A stretch of 64,000 nt of DNA from Escherichia phage phiC120. Both the position numbers and the translations under genes were made by a program. Within the stretch, counting starts at the first letter, position 1; each line of letters starts with the position of its first letter. The DNA is taken from the sequence record KY703222. The stretch is one strand, 5' to 3'. The notes under the pieces were generated by a model. It was not told where the DNA came from and did not search any database. It was given only the letters and a program-made list of their open reading frames with translations. This document shows, one piece after another, positions 1 through 63,364 of this stretch.

Positions 1-22
1 CCATCAAAAAATGTAAAGCATA

Positions 23-274
23 TTAGAACTTAATTTCTATCCAATGTCCATCACGTTGGTCGTGATTAATTTTATACTGAAAGCCGTTATCACGAAGCCA
101 TTGACCGACTTGTTCAGTTATAGTTAAATCATTCTTTGACGGATAGTACGTGAATTGTGTCTGGCCTTTGTCAGCGGCTTTCTCTGCCATCACAGAGAAG
201 TTAGTAATAAAATCACTCAACAAATTGGCTTTAGTGGCCAGGGCCCTTTCTCTTAATTCCTGTGCAAAACTCAT
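23..274 (-). CDS. hypothetical small protein (83 aa), downstream of hoc
   Basis: ORF in six-frame track; compact spacing with neighbouring minus-strand ORF; no recognisable motif. Confidence 0.4.
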   Translation of the reverse strand: MSFAQELRERALATKANLLSDFITNFSVMAEKAADKGQTQFTYYPSKNDLTITEQVGQWLRDNGFQYKINHDQRDGHWIEIKF

Positions 275-56595: not shown

Positions 56596-58809
56596 TTATT
56601 TGGCCGCTTCCACGGCCTTCATGAATTTAACGATTTGAGCGACCTGTTCTTTGGAAAGAGTACCACGTCGTCCCATGTAGTCTGACACAATATGATAATT
56701 GGTTTCGAATTCAATAACCATTTTATCATCATTATCGTAAGCATTATCTTTAAGCTTATCGAAAATTTTAGCACACAATTCTAACTTCTTATTCAGTTCT
56801 CTGTTAGTAGCACCTGAGAATCGATTCCATCCCCAACGATTATTTACTGTTGAGAGTTTTGCAAAATCTTTACTGATTTCTTTGTTCTTAGAGCTAAAAT
56901 ACTTACTAAGGAAGTTAAGCTCTTCATTACGAGTAATATGATTCAAATAAGGTTGAGCTCTACGACTTGGTGATACATACTCATCATAATCCACTTTATC
57001 GATTAGCGTAATATAGTCATTAATTGATTTTTCGAACAAGCATTCTACTTCACCAAGTTTACGAACTTTCTTAGCAATCTGCGGACGAACTACAGTGAAC
57101 TCTTTAATACCTGACAAATCAGCAATACGGGTCAAGAAATTGGAGTCATAGTTCAACCAACCTTTATCTGCGTCAAGACATTCAGCATTAGAACGATTAC
57201 GAACTATAGCATAACCTTGGATTTCATCTGCTTCACTTGCCGGAATAAAGAGGTCTTCTGATACCCAAACATCGTTTTCATTCTTAAAGAATCGATGAGC
57301 ACTTGGCGATTTAGGACGAGGCTCATTAGTCCGTTTCCTGACTTCAATCCATGGCTTAACGATTTGTAAAAGCTCTGAAGTCTTGTACATGTTAATGTTG
57401 TCGCCATCAAAGATAACTTTAAGGCGTTCCAGAAGTTTCATTGCATCTTCGTCTGTAGGGTCAACGAATATTACGCTTTTACCAAAACCGCGCGGAACTT
57501 TACCAGTTAATTTAACCTCGTCTTTAGACATTTCAATTGAATTAAGAGCTCGCATTAATGGAACGCGTCCCTTAACGTCGTCAATAACAATTTCAACGTT
57601 TTTAATGTTAATGCCAATCAGACTGTTAATTGAAATGGTTGCCGTTGAGCTACCGCTTTCACGAATACGGCGAAGACGAGTGGATTCAACGATATCGTAT
57701 ACTACGCCAAGATTACACCACTCAGGCCCCATTTTAAAACGTTTGTACAACTCAGAATAAGTTAGTTGTTCTTTGGAGTATTTCAGTGATTCAATATTAG
57801 ACCCAGCCTTTTCCATGTATTTACGAGCGGTATAGCCAAGAGAATCAATTTCACGGAACACATGACGTGGGTATTTACAATCAATCCATTTCTTAGAATC
57901 TTCAGCGAACAATTTAGCATCTATTTCTGCAACGCGTTTATGGATATTTGCTACTGTACGTTTATCAAACGACAATGCTTCACGAGACGGGGCTACATCT
58001 AGTTCACCCATAGGGAATTTAATATAAGCTGTAGTGCATCGTGTCATCATCCATGTTTGTTCTTTAATAACACTTCCGATTGGATATACAATACCGCCAT
58101 AAACAGCCATGATATTACCACGTTCACCCCATGGAGCTTCCTTGGCCAAATATACATCGTCAAATTCAGGGAAGTATTTAATATCTTTAACACCACGAAC
58201 TTCTGCAATATCACCTAGAGGACGCATAACATATGCAATTTCGGATGCAAACTTTTCAAAATCTTCCGGGTTAACCGGTACAACTACTTCTACACCCGTA
58301 CGGTCGTCAGGACCCATCTTATCTACAAATGTCGGCTTAATTTGTGGACCTGTGTCATCTTGGTAGATTACGTAACCACGAACTTCACCGTTGTGATAAG
58401 ACGTAAGGTTAAACGTATCAGTATATGCTAATGGAGCTTTAGAACCGAGTCCGAATCCACCGATGAAATCGTTACTCGATGTTTTAGTTGAAGCAAAATA
58501 TGAGTTATAGATTCCTGGCTCTTCGTCATTACCTCGAATGGTGAAATCACTCATACCAGGACCAAAGTCTCGAACTACAAAACGTGGGTCTAAACGACCT
58601 GGAGCCTGAACAATAAACTTATCAGTGCAACCATTAAGAATTTGTCCATCGATACAGTTTGTAATTAATTCACGTACACAAGCCAATTCTTTGTTTGTAT
58701 AAAGGTCATTAGACAAAATCTTATAAACTTTGCTATTGCCTTGAATAGTGAATGCTGTGCTCTTACCACCTGAACCAATAATCGTTTCTTTAGCCGTTTC
58801 AATAATCAT
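56596..58809 (-). CDS. rIIA: RIIA (membrane-associated, GHKL-like ATPase N-terminal region)
   Basis: 737 aa (T4 rIIA about 725 aa); N-terminal ELITNCIDG / GxGxS-like ATPase motifs; order rIIA-rIIB. Confidence 0.9.
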   Translation of the reverse strand: MIIETAKETIIGSGGKSTAFTIQGNSKVYKILSNDLYTNKELACVRELITNCIDGQILNGCTDKFIVQAPGRLDPRFVVRDFGPGMSDFTIRGNDEEPGIYNSYFASTKTSSNDFIGGFGLGSKAPLAYTDTFNLTSYHNGEVRGYVIYQDDTGPQIKPTFVDKMGPDDRTGVEVVVPVNPEDFEKFASEIAYVMRPLGDIAEVRGVKDIKYFPEFDDVYLAKEAPWGERGNIMAVYGGIVYPIGSVIKEQTWMMTRCTTAYIKFPMGELDVAPSREALSFDKRTVANIHKRVAEIDAKLFAEDSKKWIDCKYPRHVFREIDSLGYTARKYMEKAGSNIESLKYSKEQLTYSELYKRFKMGPEWCNLGVVYDIVESTRLRRIRESGSSTATISINSLIGINIKNVEIVIDDVKGRVPLMRALNSIEMSKDEVKLTGKVPRGFGKSVIFVDPTDEDAMKLLERLKVIFDGDNINMYKTSELLQIVKPWIEVRKRTNEPRPKSPSAHRFFKNENDVWVSEDLFIPASEADEIQGYAIVRNRSNAECLDADKGWLNYDSNFLTRIADLSGIKEFTVVRPQIAKKVRKLGEVECLFEKSINDYITLIDKVDYDEYVSPSRRAQPYLNHITRNEELNFLSKYFSSKNKEISKDFAKLSTVNNRWGWNRFSGATNRELNKKLELCAKIFDKLKDNAYDNDDKMVIEFETNYHIVSDYMGRRGTLSKEQVAQIVKFMKAVEAAK

Positions 58810-58821
58810 ATTTTTCTCTCA

Positions 58822-59022
58822 TCACAAGTTACGTTTAAAAATTTCCGCTACTTCAAGAAGTTCTTCTTTAGTAGCTGTATCGGTTTGTATTTTATATCGA
58901 ATTTCTTTAAAGCGTTCTTTAAAGAACTCTGCTGACTCGATATCAAAAAATCTTTGGATAAGCCGGAATTCCCGGAGCACCGCTTTATCAAAAAGTTCCA
59001 AGTTCACGTTATATGTTCTCAT
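58822..59022 (-). CDS. hypothetical small protein, rIIA.1 position
   Basis: 66-aa ORF immediately upstream of rIIA. Confidence 0.5.
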   Translation of the reverse strand: MRTYNVNLELFDKAVLREFRLIQRFFDIESAEFFKERFKEIRYKIQTDTATKEELLEVAEIFKRNL

Positions 59023-59114: not shown

Positions 59115-60215
59115 TTACGCTGTGAAGATTTTATCCCACATCGCAACAACTGCATCTCGGTTATACTTCTTCCATACTGCTTCAGCACGTTTAACTCGAG
59201 CTTCGTACGTGTCAGTGAATTCTAATACAGCTTTTGTGTAAAGCGCAACTACTTCTTTCTTAGGAGTAGAGGAATCAATTTCTACACGCACAGTATCTGG
59301 GTCATATTCGAATGTCGCATGCGGATAATCCTTAAAAACTAACTGAATTACAGGGACACCTTTAGAAATGGCTTCAATAGAACTATTCTCTACCGTACCT
59401 GTGTCAGGACACGTATTAATAAGTGCTTTAGCTGTTTTAAGACGTTCCATAATTTCACTGTGTGGAGCATCAATAATAACAGGATACTTAGCCGGTGGTG
59501 CCCATTTGCTTGGACAATAACCAATACCATTTTCGCCTAGTGCTTTAATCGCTTCAAGAGCAACATCAGTACGACGCATTTTAGTGTCATAACGTTGTGC
59601 ACTAATAATCAGATCAGTCGCCGGAAGAACTTCAGGTTTCTCATTCAAACAAATAACCGGATAATCTTCGGCTTCAAACAACGGATTTGCTCGCCAATAA
59701 TCATAATCAATTTTGTCAGTCAGACCTGAAGTCATATAACAATATTTGCGTTCAAATTCACGGAAGGCTTTAGTAGGAGCATAACTCTTACCACCGTTCT
59801 TATGAATTTGAATAGTCTGGTCCCAAATTTGAACAATGCCACGAGATACCGGTTCAAATGGTGTTGCCATAAAATTCTTATGAACTTTAGAGAGGCCCGC
59901 GTCTTTAATTGCCTGAACAGTTAGTTTGGTCGGTTCCATTGTAACAACGAAATCGTACTCATTAATGCCGGCTAGTTCAACAATCTTACGAGCCATAGTA
60001 TAACTCATACCTAGACTGAATTTAGTCAGATGACCAACAGGATGATGATTAACCTTCCAATCACCAAATGTGTCATTATCAAAACCGATATAATCAATAT
60101 CGGCACCGATAGAAACTAAATATTTCAACACATTTAAATGTACTGCTTCAAGACCACCTTGTACACGTTCAGGATTAAATGGGACTGCACGAGATGGGAT
60201 AAACATAACTTTCAT
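59115..60215 (-). CDS. GT-B fold (GT4-like) glycosyltransferase; candidate DNA sugar-modification enzyme
   Basis: 366 aa; N-terminal PFNPERVQGGLEAVHLNVLKYLVSIGADIDYIGF resembles the GT4 donor-binding motif; C-terminal DTGTVENSSIEAISKGVPVIQ resembles the GT4 E-x7-E region. Confidence 0.6.
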   Translation of the reverse strand: MKVMFIPSRAVPFNPERVQGGLEAVHLNVLKYLVSIGADIDYIGFDNDTFGDWKVNHHPVGHLTKFSLGMSYTMARKIVELAGINEYDFVVTMEPTKLTVQAIKDAGLSKVHKNFMATPFEPVSRGIVQIWDQTIQIHKNGGKSYAPTKAFREFERKYCYMTSGLTDKIDYDYWRANPLFEAEDYPVICLNEKPEVLPATDLIISAQRYDTKMRRTDVALEAIKALGENGIGYCPSKWAPPAKYPVIIDAPHSEIMERLKTAKALINTCPDTGTVENSSIEAISKGVPVIQLVFKDYPHATFEYDPDTVRVEIDSSTPKKEVVALYTKAVLEFTDTYEARVKRAEAVWKKYNRDAVVAMWDKIFTA

Positions 60216-60243
60216 AATTAAGCCTTATTAAAATTAAAATGAA

Positions 60244-60260
60244 GCTCCCGAAGGAGCTTA
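60244..60260 (-). terminator. hairpin AGCTCCCGAAGGAGCT between the HNH and GT genes
   Basis: Perfect inverted repeat with CGAA loop. Confidence 0.4.
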
Positions 60261-61055
60261 GGACATCCAACACATTTTATAACCTTTGCAGGTTCTGTTA
60301 GGATTATTTAATGCTTTCAATATATTAGAAGACCCTATACCTAAATACTCCCTTAATTCATAAAGATAGTTAAAATCAATAGTTTCACCTGTTTTTACAC
60401 TTGTGATTCTTATAGGCCTTCTTTCATATTTAGATTTATACAACTCTCTAGTCTTAGCTTTAGTTTCTTCTGACCTAGGAGTGTATGGTTTAAATCCTTT
60501 TGTTTTAAATGTTTCCATTCTTGATTTAGTTATTTTATCCTGATGTTCTTTTGTTTTTACAGGTGCTTTTCGCCCATTCTCCCAAGATAACTTGTTGGCC
60601 TGTATTATTTTATCTATTGCTTCTTGCGTATGAGTTTTACCATAAAATGGATTTAATTCGCCTATACGTTGTGAAGCAATATGTGACATTAATTCTCTTG
60701 TTGCTTTAGTATGTTTTTTACCTTTAAATGGGTTGCCATTTTTAGCAATCCATTCTTTCATAAATCTAGAGTGCTCTTTAGAGAATTCTTGTTTAAGCCA
60801 ATCATAATCTCTAGAATTTCTAGCTCCTATGTAAAAAGCTCTAATAGCCATAAGCATAGAACGGTTCTTATGAATTTTATAAAGCAATAAATGGGCGATA
60901 AAATGCTCTCTAGGGGTCATTTTAACTAGATTTGATTTAGCATTACTCCCGCCCATAGATTTAGGCAAAATATGGTGAGTTTCAGTATAATTAGGAATAG
61001 TGCTGCGGTTTTTAGCCGCAGCGATAAGTTTATCATAAATTTTACGATAATTCAT
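60258..61055 (-). mobile_element. free-standing HNH homing endonuclease with NUMOD-like DNA-binding repeats (Mob-like)
   Basis: ORF 60258..61070 in track; likely start MNYRKIY at 61055 gives a TAATG overlap with the gene 39 stop; HNH motif ETHHILPKSMGGSNAKSNLVKMTPREHFIAHLL; repeated NPFKGKKHT / NPFYGKTHT units. Confidence 0.75.
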
Positions 61056-62875
61056 TATCCTAGCATCCAATCTTTACGGAGTTCAGGGTCGTTACCCATG
61101 AGCATTTCAAATAGTTCTTTCCAATTTTCAGGAAGTTTAACTACGTCGTACACAGGGTTTTGAATCATTTCTTTATATTCATCTCGCTGAAGTGAGCCCA
61201 ATCCCTTGATGTATCGAATACTATGCTTAGGAAGCGTATCTTTAGCTTCTTCATACTCAGCTACAGTATAAAACCATTTTTGAGATTTGCCAATTTGTGC
61301 AATAATTACAGGTGTTTTAACAAAGCGAATACGTCCTTGTTCAAACAATTCAGGCCAATTACTAAAGAAAGCAAGCAAAGCCGGATAGATACTTCCAAGA
61401 CCGTCATGATCGGCATCGGTCATAATTGCAATATTACGATAGTTCGTATTCTCTGCCTTTTCACCAAGAATAAGACCTGTGATAGCACAGATATCGAATA
61501 ACTCTTTGTTCTTCATCATATCAGCATATGACATACCCCAGCTATTCATCACCTTACCACGTAATGGGAATCCGCCGTGTAGTTCACGGTCACGAACATC
61601 AATGAGATATCCAATTGCCGAATCACCTTCTGTTAAGAACAATGTCGTATCTGCATCTTTACCGCATTGGTTAGCTTTAATATGCTTATGAACCTTAGCT
61701 TTAGTTGCCTTTTTAGCTGCTTTAGTTTCTGCAGCCTTTTCTGCTGCCAATTTACGAGCTAATGCTGCTTCAACAATAGGCATAATCAAGGATTCGTTTT
61801 TAAGAAGTGCCTGAGCAATTTTCTTAGCATCTAATTGGATATGATTACGAATATCACCATACGTTGACGTTAAACGTTCTTTAGTCTGAGAATCAAAACG
61901 CATGTTGCTCATGTCTCTAATAAACATCAACATTGTGAGGCATTCTTTAACACGAGCTTTAGTGACTTCAATACCCTTATATTTCTTTTTAATACCCGGC
62001 AAAAGATGTTCGCAGATATCATCCATTACACATTCAACATGATGACCACCATTTTTAGTATGGATGTTATTCACATAAGTTAAATGACGGAAGCCATCTG
62101 GTGATGTTGTGAATGCTATAGAGACTTTATCATTTTCTTGAATGATGTTATCTTCACCAAATTGTTTAGCAAATCGTTTAAAATTACCATCAACCTTTTT
62201 ACCATTAAATGTGAACTTGATATCAGGATAAACGACTGCCAATGTTTGAAGTCGGTCTAAAGTAATATCTAAATAAATTTGAGATAAATTATGCTCTTCA
62301 AATGAAGTGAAATCAGGAGTGAAGATTACTTTAGTGCCTTTACCTTTAGATTTCTTAGAAGACCATGATTTGTTTTCCATTCCGTTTGAACAGTTAACAG
62401 TGATTTCATTTTCGCCATCTGACGTGATGCCTGTAAACAACGTAGAGAAGATATTAGTTAAACTACTCCCGACGCCGTTCATACCACCAGTCTTGCGTTC
62501 AGAATCATCACCAAAGTTACCACCGGCCTTTGGAATAGTCCAGGCTGCTACAGGACCAGGAATTTGTTCACCTGTTTGGTCGGTAACTAAACCTTGAGGA
62601 ATACCACGTCCGTTATCTTCCACCGAAACTTGATTATTTTTAATTTGCACATCAATTTTATTTGCAAACTTAAATGATGTACGAATAGCTTCATCAACCG
62701 AGTTGTCAATAATCTCATCGATTAATTTAACCAGACCAGGAACATATTCAACTTGTTGATATTTACCAAACAAAAAACGCTCGTGGGCTTCTTTAGCAGA
62801 AGAACCAATATACATGCCACTACGTTTCTTAATATGTTCTACATCTGACAGTACCTTAATTTCATTTTTAATCAT
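61055..62875 (-). CDS. 39: DNA topoisomerase II large subunit (GyrB-like ATPase + Toprim), single fused 39/60-type ORF
   Basis: 606 aa continuous; GHKL ATPase N-terminus and Toprim EGDSA motif in one frame; no internal untranslated gap. Confidence 0.9.
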   Translation of the reverse strand: MIKNEIKVLSDVEHIKKRSGMYIGSSAKEAHERFLFGKYQQVEYVPGLVKLIDEIIDNSVDEAIRTSFKFANKIDVQIKNNQVSVEDNGRGIPQGLVTDQTGEQIPGPVAAWTIPKAGGNFGDDSERKTGGMNGVGSSLTNIFSTLFTGITSDGENEITVNCSNGMENKSWSSKKSKGKGTKVIFTPDFTSFEEHNLSQIYLDITLDRLQTLAVVYPDIKFTFNGKKVDGNFKRFAKQFGEDNIIQENDKVSIAFTTSPDGFRHLTYVNNIHTKNGGHHVECVMDDICEHLLPGIKKKYKGIEVTKARVKECLTMLMFIRDMSNMRFDSQTKERLTSTYGDIRNHIQLDAKKIAQALLKNESLIMPIVEAALARKLAAEKAAETKAAKKATKAKVHKHIKANQCGKDADTTLFLTEGDSAIGYLIDVRDRELHGGFPLRGKVMNSWGMSYADMMKNKELFDICAITGLILGEKAENTNYRNIAIMTDADHDGLGSIYPALLAFFSNWPELFEQGRIRFVKTPVIIAQIGKSQKWFYTVAEYEEAKDTLPKHSIRYIKGLGSLQRDEYKEMIQNPVYDVVKLPENWKELFEMLMGNDPELRKDWMLG

Positions 62876-62924
62876 GTTGTCTCCTCGTTATGAAGGTATT
62901 CTATCATCCTAAATCTAAAGCAAA

Positions 62925-62940
62925 AAGGGCCGAAGCCCTT
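62925..62940 (-). terminator. hairpin AAGGGCCGAAGCCCTT with T-run on minus strand
   Basis: Perfect stem-loop overlapping the stop of ORF 62939..63364. Confidence 0.5.
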
Positions 62941-63364
62941 ATTTAAATTTAATTTTCTGAAGTGCATCAATTGCAGCCAGGCGCCCTTGTTCACTTTTAA
63001 CTGTAATGACCACATCGCCTGATACGATCACCGAACCATCAACAAATTCTATAGAGCCTTTTTTGAAATCAACAGATGTATCTGGTTCCGGAACTTCTTC
63101 AAAGAATTTAAATTCTGCACCATAAAGCAGAATATCACCTTGCATACTATGAATAGTTCGGCCATAATCGCCTACGGCTTCTACAGCAATAACCGAAACA
63201 CCGTAACCAATCATCTCTTCCACAATAAAATCTTTGGACAATAAAGTAGTATGCAGATTAGTATTAAGACGTTTACCAGTCGTATTAAGAATTCTCAAGA
63301 AATTATCTTCCTGTCCTTTGATAATACGATATTTCTTACCAACTTCAAAACCTTTAAAAGCCAT
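62939..63364 (-). CDS. hypothetical protein (141 aa)
   Basis: ORF upstream of gene 39. Confidence 0.4.
   Translation of the reverse strand: MAFKGFEVGKKYRIIKGQEDNFLRILNTTGKRLNTNLHTTLLSKDFIVEEMIGYGVSVIAVEAVGDYGRTIHSMQGDILLYGAEFKFFEEVPEPDTSVDFKKGSIEFVDGSVIVSGDVVITVKSEQGRLAAIDALQKIKFK

Follow-up and report, generated by a model that had tools for sequence, protein, structure and literature searches.

A putative Mob-family homing endonuclease cassette in the last codons of the topoisomerase gene 39 of RB69-like phages

Results

The DNA analysed here (the window) is a 64,000-nt stretch of Escherichia phage phiC120 (KY703222), and the element in question is an open reading frame (ORF) located directly downstream of gene 39, which codes for a fused large subunit of topoisomerase II. 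Comparison of this ORF, hereafter the homing endonuclease gene (HEG), and of its surroundings with those of related phages suggests that it very probably encodes an intact, probably active homing endonuclease of the Mob family, carried as an 800-nt promoter-less cassette within the last codons of gene 39. The 4.2-kb region around HEG is 100% identical to Escherichia phage phiE142 (NC_055709) and 97–98% identical to many ~168-kb RB69-like Mosigviruses, and all the genes around HEG are on the minus strand. HEG is an ordinary element, an uncharacterised member of the Mob family already annotated as "homing endonuclease" in public records (RefSeq phiE142), and a literature search found no paper on this particular endonuclease.

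The HEG protein and its relation to the T4 Mob endonucleases

The HEG protein matched PHROG 655 ("homing endonuclease") at 4.6e-54, and BLASTP aligned it with MobB (3e-26), MobE (1e-24), MobD (5e-23) and MobC (2e-13), as well as with the intact MobA of phage CJY920 (3e-23). Over the first ~70 residues the identity to T4 MobB, MobD and MobE and to CJY920 MobA was 45–59%, and the C-terminus is MobB-like (SNIxKxL...GYxWxY). The motif HH-x13-N-x8-H-x3-H aligned to PF01844 and to the HNH core of McrA. In a family alignment of 58 sequences, N42, H51 and H55 were invariant, and H27, H28, E25, G35 and G36 were kept in at least 90% of the homologues; the protein thus has the HNH residues, namely the His general base, the structural Asn and the metal-binding His, at their canonical spacing. 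HEG is a separate ORF after a continuous gene 39 whose protein is complete; it is thus free-standing and belongs, with its HNH core, to the homing endonucleases of the T4 Mob family.

An initial annotation of the window, made from the sequence alone, had already described a free-standing HNH homing endonuclease of Mob/I-HmuI-like type with repeated NUMOD-like units. This description agrees with the matches to PHROG 655 and to the Mob proteins, with the HNH residues and with two stretches of NUMOD3 detected by Pfam (4.6e-09, 36.5 bits against a cutoff of 20.4). Its assignment of the nuclease motif to the HNH_3 type had to be abandoned, as no match to HNH_3 (PF13392) was obtained at E ≤ 0.1; the Pfam scan gave no NUMOD4 signal either. 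The profile check that it had proposed was significant for NUMOD3, whereas the HNH part stayed below the gathering cutoffs, with 16.0 bits (E 0.013) for PF01844 against a cutoff of 21.4.

A sequence search against solved structures returned McrA as its sole match, with an E value of 0.37 and over the HNH core. The AlphaFold2 model of the HEG protein (mean pLDDT 87, ~95 over residues 1–70) places strands at residues 25–28 and 43–46 followed by a helix at residues 48–62, corresponding to the beta-beta-alpha fold around the motif, and beyond the HNH core it shows a helical linker and a small C-terminal strand/helix module. The top structural match of this model was I-HmuI, with Cas8-HNH, McrA and Gme HNH also detected. 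I-HmuI (Bacillus phage SPO1, PDB 1u3e) has a similarly extended, modular build, in which the HNH is N-terminal and a helical part at the C-terminus binds DNA. However, the identity in structural alignments was only 13–19%, and I-HmuI is an intron-encoded nicking enzyme, whereas HEG is free-standing and gives no HNH_3 or NUMOD4 signal. NUMOD3 units are also shared with the DNA-binding domain of I-TevI and with the Seg and Tev endonucleases, the catalytic domains of which are GIY-YIG instead of HNH.

The HEG protein of the window carries Ile76 and Gly239, while the six other copies read, one from Mosigvirus AV115 and five from Tequatroviruses, have Met76 and Asp239 throughout, so that both are private substitutions of the phiE142 copy. 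The six other copies are full-length with 2–3 residue differences, and the catalytic residues are kept in all seven. Two of the 26 copies known look frameshifted, those of AV118 (OR352948; 799 nt, split in tblastn) and ECO111 5-P (OR844765; 797 nt); compared to the usual 798 nt, these lengths may represent frameshift decay or else sequencing error.

Structure of the cassette at the 3' end of gene 39

Gene 39 is intact and fused in the window, as the initial annotation had stated. Its 606-aa product matched PHROG 543 over its full length (1.5e-286), residues 452–604 matched the gp60-type PHROG 7229, and Pfam detected DNA_gyraseB, HATPase_c and TOPRIM_C. Gene 39 is the host gene of HEG, with its 3' end as the insertion site and the probable target. 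The ORF first given for HEG, 60258–61070, is real, but it is a maximal ORF that starts at an in-frame TTG (61070) at its upstream end; the likeliest form of the gene is the 265-aa one annotated by RefSeq for phiE142, starting at an ATG at 61055 on the minus strand. This ATG (61055–61053) overlaps the TAA stop of gene 39 (61057–61055) by exactly one base, which is the TAATG junction that had been predicted (minus-strand reading ...GAT TGG ATG CTA GGA TAA TG AAT TAT...).

The extent of the insertion was defined by comparison with the clean empty allele of phage NHEP36, which reads ...CGTAAAGATTGGATG joined to TCCTAAGCTCC, with both sides identical to the HEG-bearing allele and the window-type gene 39 sequence running straight into TCCTAA. 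At the left end of the insert, new Leu-Gly codons and a TAA stop are provided, together with a weak AGGA Shine-Dalgarno sequence, only 2 nt before the ATG of HEG. A 7-nt direct repeat, TTGGATG, is present at both ends (Table 1). The upstream copy includes the Trp-Met codons of gene 39, and the downstream copy followed by TCC TAA (60263–60258) is the displaced end of gene 39 (WMS-stop), which now constitutes the last codons and the stop of HEG. Uninvaded alleles of gene 39 end in ...CGTAAAGAATGGATGTCCTAA (EWMS-stop) with the hairpin AAGCTCCTTCGGGAGCTT directly after, and in the HEG-less PECP20 and RB69 this hairpin likewise comes after the gene 39 end, GAATGGATGTCCTAA. The window has a gene 39 that ends in ...GATTGGATG-CTA-GGA-TAA-TG and HEG in ...TGTTGGATG-TCC-TAA, again followed by AAGCTCCTTCGGGAGCTT. 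Hence, the cassette turns the Ser-stop end of gene 39 into Leu-Gly-stop, and borrows the displaced last codons and stop of this gene together with its terminator. Because the same hairpin lies directly after the gene 39 stop in HEG-less alleles, it is the terminator of gene 39 itself, now serving HEG.

No late promoter (TATAAATA) was found within 59900–63100, and sigma-70-like sites were not above shuffled expectation; a late promoter of its own was thus rejected and the gene was treated as a promoter-less cassette. A hairpin sequestering the ribosome-binding site, as in I-TevI or in mobE of Aeh1, was also unconvincing at the start region, the folds of which were weak (51 nt, z −0.46; 91 nt, z −1.9). 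HEG fits the pattern described for T4 mob genes, which lack a promoter and are translationally coupled (PMC2988022). The anatomy of HEG, with read-out through the end of gene 39 into the gene 39 terminator, argues for its transcription together with gene 39. Translation is probably low-level and by termination-reinitiation, as proposed for the overlap between T4 nrdA and mobE.

Table 1. Coordinates of HEG, its cassette and the neighbouring features in the window (positions in residues for the parts of the HEG protein)
Feature	Position	Strand	Basis or remark
HEG, 265 aa, ATG start	60258–61055	minus	ORF; RefSeq phiE142 annotation
HNH core	residues ~1–70		HEG protein
Helical linker with two NUMOD3 units	residues ~105–160		HEG protein
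C-terminal strand/helix DNA-binding module (predicted)	residues ~215–263		HEG protein
Gene 39, fused topoisomerase II large subunit, 606 aa	61055–62875	minus	profile matches
800-nt insertion, as compared to the clean empty NHEP36 allele	60264–61063	minus	allele comparison
Left insert end CTAGGATAATG (Leu-Gly codons, TAA, AGGA, HEG start)	61053–61063	minus	read directly
Upstream copy of the direct repeat TTGGATG	61064–61070	minus
Downstream copy of TTGGATG	60264–60270	minus
Terminator-like hairpin AAGCTCCTTCGGGAGCTT with T-rich tail, overlapping the HEG stop	60242–60259	minus	terminator scan
Cluster A, gene 39 substitution block	61172–61199	minus	candidate recognition/immunity site (inferred)
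Cluster B, HEG-linked substitutions at the gene 39 end, MGNDPELRKDWMLG vs LGDDSELRKEWMS	61063–61112	minus
Tract shared with Tequatroviruses	60169–61400	minus	98.9–99.3% identity in fPS-90, F1, BYEP01 and FL12
First 47 nt of the arabinosyltransferase-like gene, a dead fragment in Tequatroviruses	60169–60215	minus
366-aa gene, RB69 ORF003c/gp3 orthologue, candidate DNA arabinosyltransferase	59115–60215	minus	362/366 identity; PHROG 8302
rIIA.1	58822–59022	minus
rIIA	56596–58809	minus

Distribution of HEG and allele states of the locus

HEG was detected at a minimum of 98.2% identity in 26 phage records, adjoined in all of them by the topoisomerase gene, and ~126 related Mosigvirus records, that of RB69 itself among them, carry the uninvaded allele. 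It is present in about 13% of the Mosigvirus records and in a handful of Tequatroviruses. The initial annotation had proposed to look for such presence/absence polymorphism in relatives, and its occurrence at one homologous site in close relatives points to HEG as a truly mobile gene. The arrangement of genes is accordingly not identical among the relatives, and the conserved His and Asn residues are present in the protein.

Two groups of substitutions in gene 39, clusters A and B, separate the HEG-bearing from the uninvaded Mosigvirus alleles, and five allele states were distinguished in this genus: uninvaded, JM17, NHEP36, footprint and HEG-bearing. The uninvaded allele has LEKSEYR at cluster A and LGDDSELRKEWMS plus the stop at cluster B. 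The HEG-less JM17 allele is of HEG type at cluster A alone (A+B−), and NHEP36 is of HEG type at both clusters (A+B+) with a clean empty site. The footprint allele contains 19 extra nt, CTTGGTTAATTGA(T/-)(A/G)GATG, and was found in six records (LF82-4, TH12, TH58, phiEC1, CCU7 and OLB35) and in one metagenome contig. As this 19-nt sequence looks like the initial 13 nt of the insert fused to the TGGATG on the right, it would most simply be a scar left by deletion of HEG. The allele series suggests that HEG has spread among RB69-like Mosigviruses and has since been lost in some lineages, leaving footprints. Besides phiE142 itself, a scan of IMG/VR for the left-end/footprint motif recovered no more than one footprint contig and three matches attributable to chance. 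The IMG/VR contig 3300029310_000173 (L021/L063) is HEG-less and combines an uninvaded-type cluster A (LEKSEYR) with a HEG-type cluster B and the 19-nt footprint, showing that recombination has taken place in the mere ~60 nt that separate the clusters.

Transfer of HEG from Mosigvirus to Tequatrovirus

Six Tequatrovirus records (fPS-90, F1, FN, BYEP01, FL12 and CJY920) contain HEG at 99.4–99.6% identity. In four of them (fPS-90, F1, BYEP01 and FL12) the high identity extends along a shared tract (Table 1), which runs from the 3' end of gene 39 across HEG, its terminator and the intergenic spacer to 47 nt within the gene that follows, whereas the identity to the window is 74–75% for the rest of gene 39, 72% for rIIA.1 and 58% for rIIA. 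The left boundary of the tract is at 61184–61226 in CJY920, at 61313–61471 in the four other Tequatroviruses and at 61619–61766 in Mosigvirus AV115. Such variable left boundaries would be expected of co-conversion tracts, in which HEG appears to carry along a part of the gene 39 3' end that differs in length among the phages (~130–700 nt).

The right boundary, in contrast, is the same (60169) in all the Tequatrovirus copies, and the right-hand joint lies within an AATcCTGA / AATgCTGA microhomology. This structure indicates one founding illegitimate join followed by spread inside Tequatrovirus. The order after HEG in these phages is the Mosigvirus terminator and spacer, the 47-nt fragment, CCTTCGTAAAGAATGGATGAGCCAGTAG and then normal T4 sequence, CCTTCGTAAAGAATGGATGAGCCAGTAG being the last 28 nt of a T4-type gene 60/39, that is, a displaced remnant of the resident gene end. 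Since the recipients hold the donor terminator, the 47-nt stub and the displaced 28-nt resident remnant, HEG must have moved from Mosigvirus to Tequatrovirus, and must have done so recently. It crossed once, by homologous recombination at the left-hand side and by a microhomology join at the right-hand one. A scan of IMG/VR for the chimeric Tequatrovirus junction gave 0 matches. RB69 reportedly cannot exchange genes with T4 (PMC6024577).

The patchy distribution and the mosaic flanks could also be explained by ordinary recombination and deletion among co-infecting T-even phages, with HEG as a decaying or inactive relic. The two apparently frameshifted copies, the existence of HEG-less alleles with HEG-type flanks and the fact that mobA is a pseudogene in T4 are in line with this possibility. 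However, every one of the seven sequences read is intact, with few substitutions and none at catalytic residues, and HEG crossed genera between flanks that are 58–75% identical, with a microhomology join on one side; such joins are rare for undirected recombination and typical of break repair. We consider it very improbable that HEG is a relic.

The initial annotation had also suggested that HEG could mobilise the neighbouring glycosyltransferase gene, for which no evidence was found. This 366-aa gene is present with essentially the same sequence in Mosigviruses with and without HEG, the downstream flank is ~100% identical between HEG-bearing and uninvaded Mosigviruses, and only the 47-nt fragment was moved to the Tequatroviruses. 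Mobilisation of the gene was thus rejected, and the gene most likely lies outside the mobile unit. RB69 ORF003c is a proposed DNA arabinosyltransferase (PMC6024577, PMC13326640).

A candidate target in the 3' region of gene 39

The shortest co-converted tract, that of CJY920, ends just upstream of cluster A, and the recipient remnants that were kept start 27–32 nt before the stop codon. Because these two limits bracket the region, the break would fall roughly within the last 30–170 nt of gene 39. Cluster A reads LQRDEYK in the HEG-bearing genomes examined compared to LEKSEYR in uninvaded Mosigviruses and Tequatroviruses, T4 included, and LE[DE]SEY in three more distant HEG-less phages, whereas four HEG-bearing lineages have LQRDEYK, LQRSEYG, LSQDEYG or LTEDEYS. 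Cluster B is simply a variable region, as it is not the same even in the uninvaded sequences of T4 and of RB69 type. From the tract bracket and the changes in all four HEG-bearing lineages, cluster A is tentatively proposed as the recognition or immunity site. The comparison covers four HEG-bearing lineages and five HEG-less backgrounds; a scan of IMG/VR with the C-terminus of gp39 gave only about a dozen close loci.

These data can be accommodated in a model of homing. In a mixed infection, judging from what is known of the family, the HEG enzyme would nick or cut the 3' region of gene 39 in a phage lacking the cassette, and recombination-dependent repair of the T4 type would then copy the cassette together with a variable length of donor flank. 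The putative recognition region would be the stretch coding for GSLEKSEYR, ~120–145 nt upstream of the insertion point. As this stretch is substituted in every cassette-bearing genome examined, the carriers would be immune.

A different target could be invoked for an active nuclease, either the terminator/intergenic region or the 5' end of the arabinosyltransferase-like gene, with the substitutions in gene 39 hitch-hiking from the lineage in which the cassette first landed. In support of this, free-standing T4 endonucleases can cut at a distance and on either side of their own gene (PMC2988022), and the A+B+ haplotype of NHEP36 type exists without the cassette. Nevertheless, Tequatroviruses were invaded although T4 has no homologue of the downstream Mosigvirus sequence, the downstream flank does not distinguish HEG-bearing from uninvaded Mosigviruses, and gene 39 is the only neighbour common to the related endonucleases. 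A target outside gene 39 is consequently regarded as improbable.

The three closest non-identical homologues of the HEG protein (41–45% identity) are each encoded directly after a topoisomerase large-subunit gene, in different T4-like metagenome phages. Their genes overlap the topoisomerase gene (GTGA or ATGA) or start 34 nt downstream of it, and one of them is followed by a 27-nt gene-end remnant, CTTCGTAAAGAGTGGATGAATCAATAG. The genes downstream differ, being a 51-aa ORF with rIIA.1 or an RNA ligase 2 gene. The next homologues, P0005 and P0006 (39–40% identity), adjoin genes of SpoVR/PrkA type and not gene 39, and the site-specific sub-lineage therefore stops at ~41% identity. It is conceivable, at a strength similar to that of the proposal for cluster A, that HEG and its 41–45% relatives form a distinct Mob sub-lineage for the topoisomerase 3' end, which brings its own gene end and immunity substitutions (in the GSLEKSEYR stretch) and can complete its invasion by microhomology where homology downstream is absent.

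Discussion

Several observations weigh against the interpretation proposed here. At the level of the protein, HNH_5 and HNH_4 (E ~0.01) also scored below their gathering cutoffs. Regarding the footprint, four of the first 13 positions differ from the present end of the insert, so its derivation by deletion is unproven. Besides, the JM17 (A+B−), L021 (A−B+ with footprint) and NHEP36 (A+B+) alleles reveal that the two clusters and the end structure are freely exchanged, and this reassortment in HEG-less alleles makes linkage alone weak evidence. Homologous recombination alone could produce mosaic boundaries without a nuclease. Finally, the sample on which cluster A was compared is small, and the distant lineages differ at many other positions too.

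The conservation of the HEG ORF could also be due to domestication of the protein for a phage function, such as competitor exclusion or DNA processing, kept by selection at the level of the phage. Homing endonucleases can indeed help the phage, as in marker exclusion (PMC2988022), and SegB amplifies anti-defence loci (PMC13096335). Yet HEG is restricted to a minor fraction of the Mosigvirus records and those few Tequatroviruses, footprints of its loss exist, and no second Mob-like gene (paralogue) or partner gene was found in the window. Domestication appears highly improbable, and we favour a mobile, probably active Mob-family endonuclease.

Among the T4 proteins, MobB (45% identity over 116 aa) and MobE (54% over 71 aa) share with HEG the N-terminal HNH core MNYxKIY...ExHHIxPxxxGGxxxxxNLVxLTxREHFxAH and the organization as a promoter-less cassette, and nrdA/mobE has the same one-base stop/start overlap with an upstream essential gene. 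In contrast to MobB and MobE, whose genes are at a-gt/a-gt.2 or nrdA/nrdB, HEG is at gene 39, presumably with a different target; its middle region has two NUMOD3 units, and it lies within the last codons of the host gene and not cleanly between genes.

The closest parallel in location is the MobA cassette of T4. The T4 locus equivalent to that of the window consists of gene 39, a mobA pseudogene, 60.1 and gene 60 with a 50-nt bypass, in agreement with the initial annotation, which placed a mob gene in the 39/60 region of T4. This cassette, with mobA and the 50-nt bypass of gene 60, was reportedly described by Bonocora and colleagues in 2011. Like that of HEG, it consists of an HNH gene of the Mob family that enters the gene for the topoisomerase II large subunit and carries replacement coding sequence for the interrupted gene, and the N-terminal 71 aa of the HEG protein are 59% identical to intact MobA. 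However, MobA is inserted mid-gene, splits genes 39 and 60 and needs translational bypassing, whereas HEG is at the extreme 3' end and the gene stays whole, with only its last residues changed. MobA cassettes have been inserted independently in several phage clades (Manning & Atkins, bioRxiv 10.1101/2022.08.31.505936), as has the kind of endonuclease found in the window. Tequatrovirus CJY920 (L009 3001–6660) has gene 39 (517 aa), an intact MobA-like ORF of 272 aa, gene 60 and then HEG; because this phage has both, MobA and the window-type HEG are compatible in one gene and not alternatives.

Other putative endonucleases were observed at the opposite end of the same gene. AV115-type Mosigviruses have an extra 227-aa ORF (L003 5570–6253, minus strand; just upstream of window ~62875) with three NUMOD3 that overlaps the start of gene 39. 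The 5' half of AV115 gene 39 is divergent, with 57–87% identity to the window, rising to ~98% from about window 61620–61766, and the extra ORF seems to be another endonuclease cassette, one that works on the opposite end of gene 39. In a T4-like metagenome phage (L011), an ORF of 235 aa with an Endonuclease VII domain (2.9e-17; 1144–1851) is directly upstream of the topoisomerase gene, and a Mob-like gene is downstream of it, which further marks this gene as a hotspot of nuclease insertion. Endonuclease genes are thus found at several points of a topoisomerase large-subunit gene that appears to be a hotspot for them, with MobA mid-gene, HEG at the 3' end and NUMOD3 or Endonuclease VII ORFs at the 5' end in some phages.

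Two further observations concern the records and the surroundings of the locus. NC_055709 (phiE142) was deposited as a 121-kb circular genome in a genus of its own, Carettavirus, and its endonuclease region is syntenic with, and 97–98% identical to, that of the ~168-kb Mosigviruses. Its assembly may be incomplete or have been collapsed. Upstream of gene 39, between this gene and a 141-aa ORF (62939–63364), there is a perfect GC-rich hairpin, AAGGGCTTCGGCCCTT (62925–62940), which overlaps the 3' end of the 141-aa ORF and has a terminator score on both strands.

The interest of HEG lies in the legible record that it offers of invasion, co-conversion, cross-genus transfer and loss, along with a testable prediction of a target site. 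The sequenced isolates represent the whole cycle of gain, spread and loss, with uninvaded, invaded and frameshifted alleles, alleles deleted with a footprint, and clean/immune empty sites. In practical terms, those who engineer phages or develop phage therapy should reckon with a skew of markers near gene 39 when T-even phages infect together. The HEG tract constitutes a case, dated by identity, of RB69-like DNA entering T4-like phages across a reported barrier. If the proposed sub-lineage is real, it would be a vehicle past the reported recombination barrier between RB69-type (arabinosyl-modified) and T4-type (glucosyl-hydroxymethylcytosine) phages, and each invasion could be read from the gene-end remnants that it displaced.

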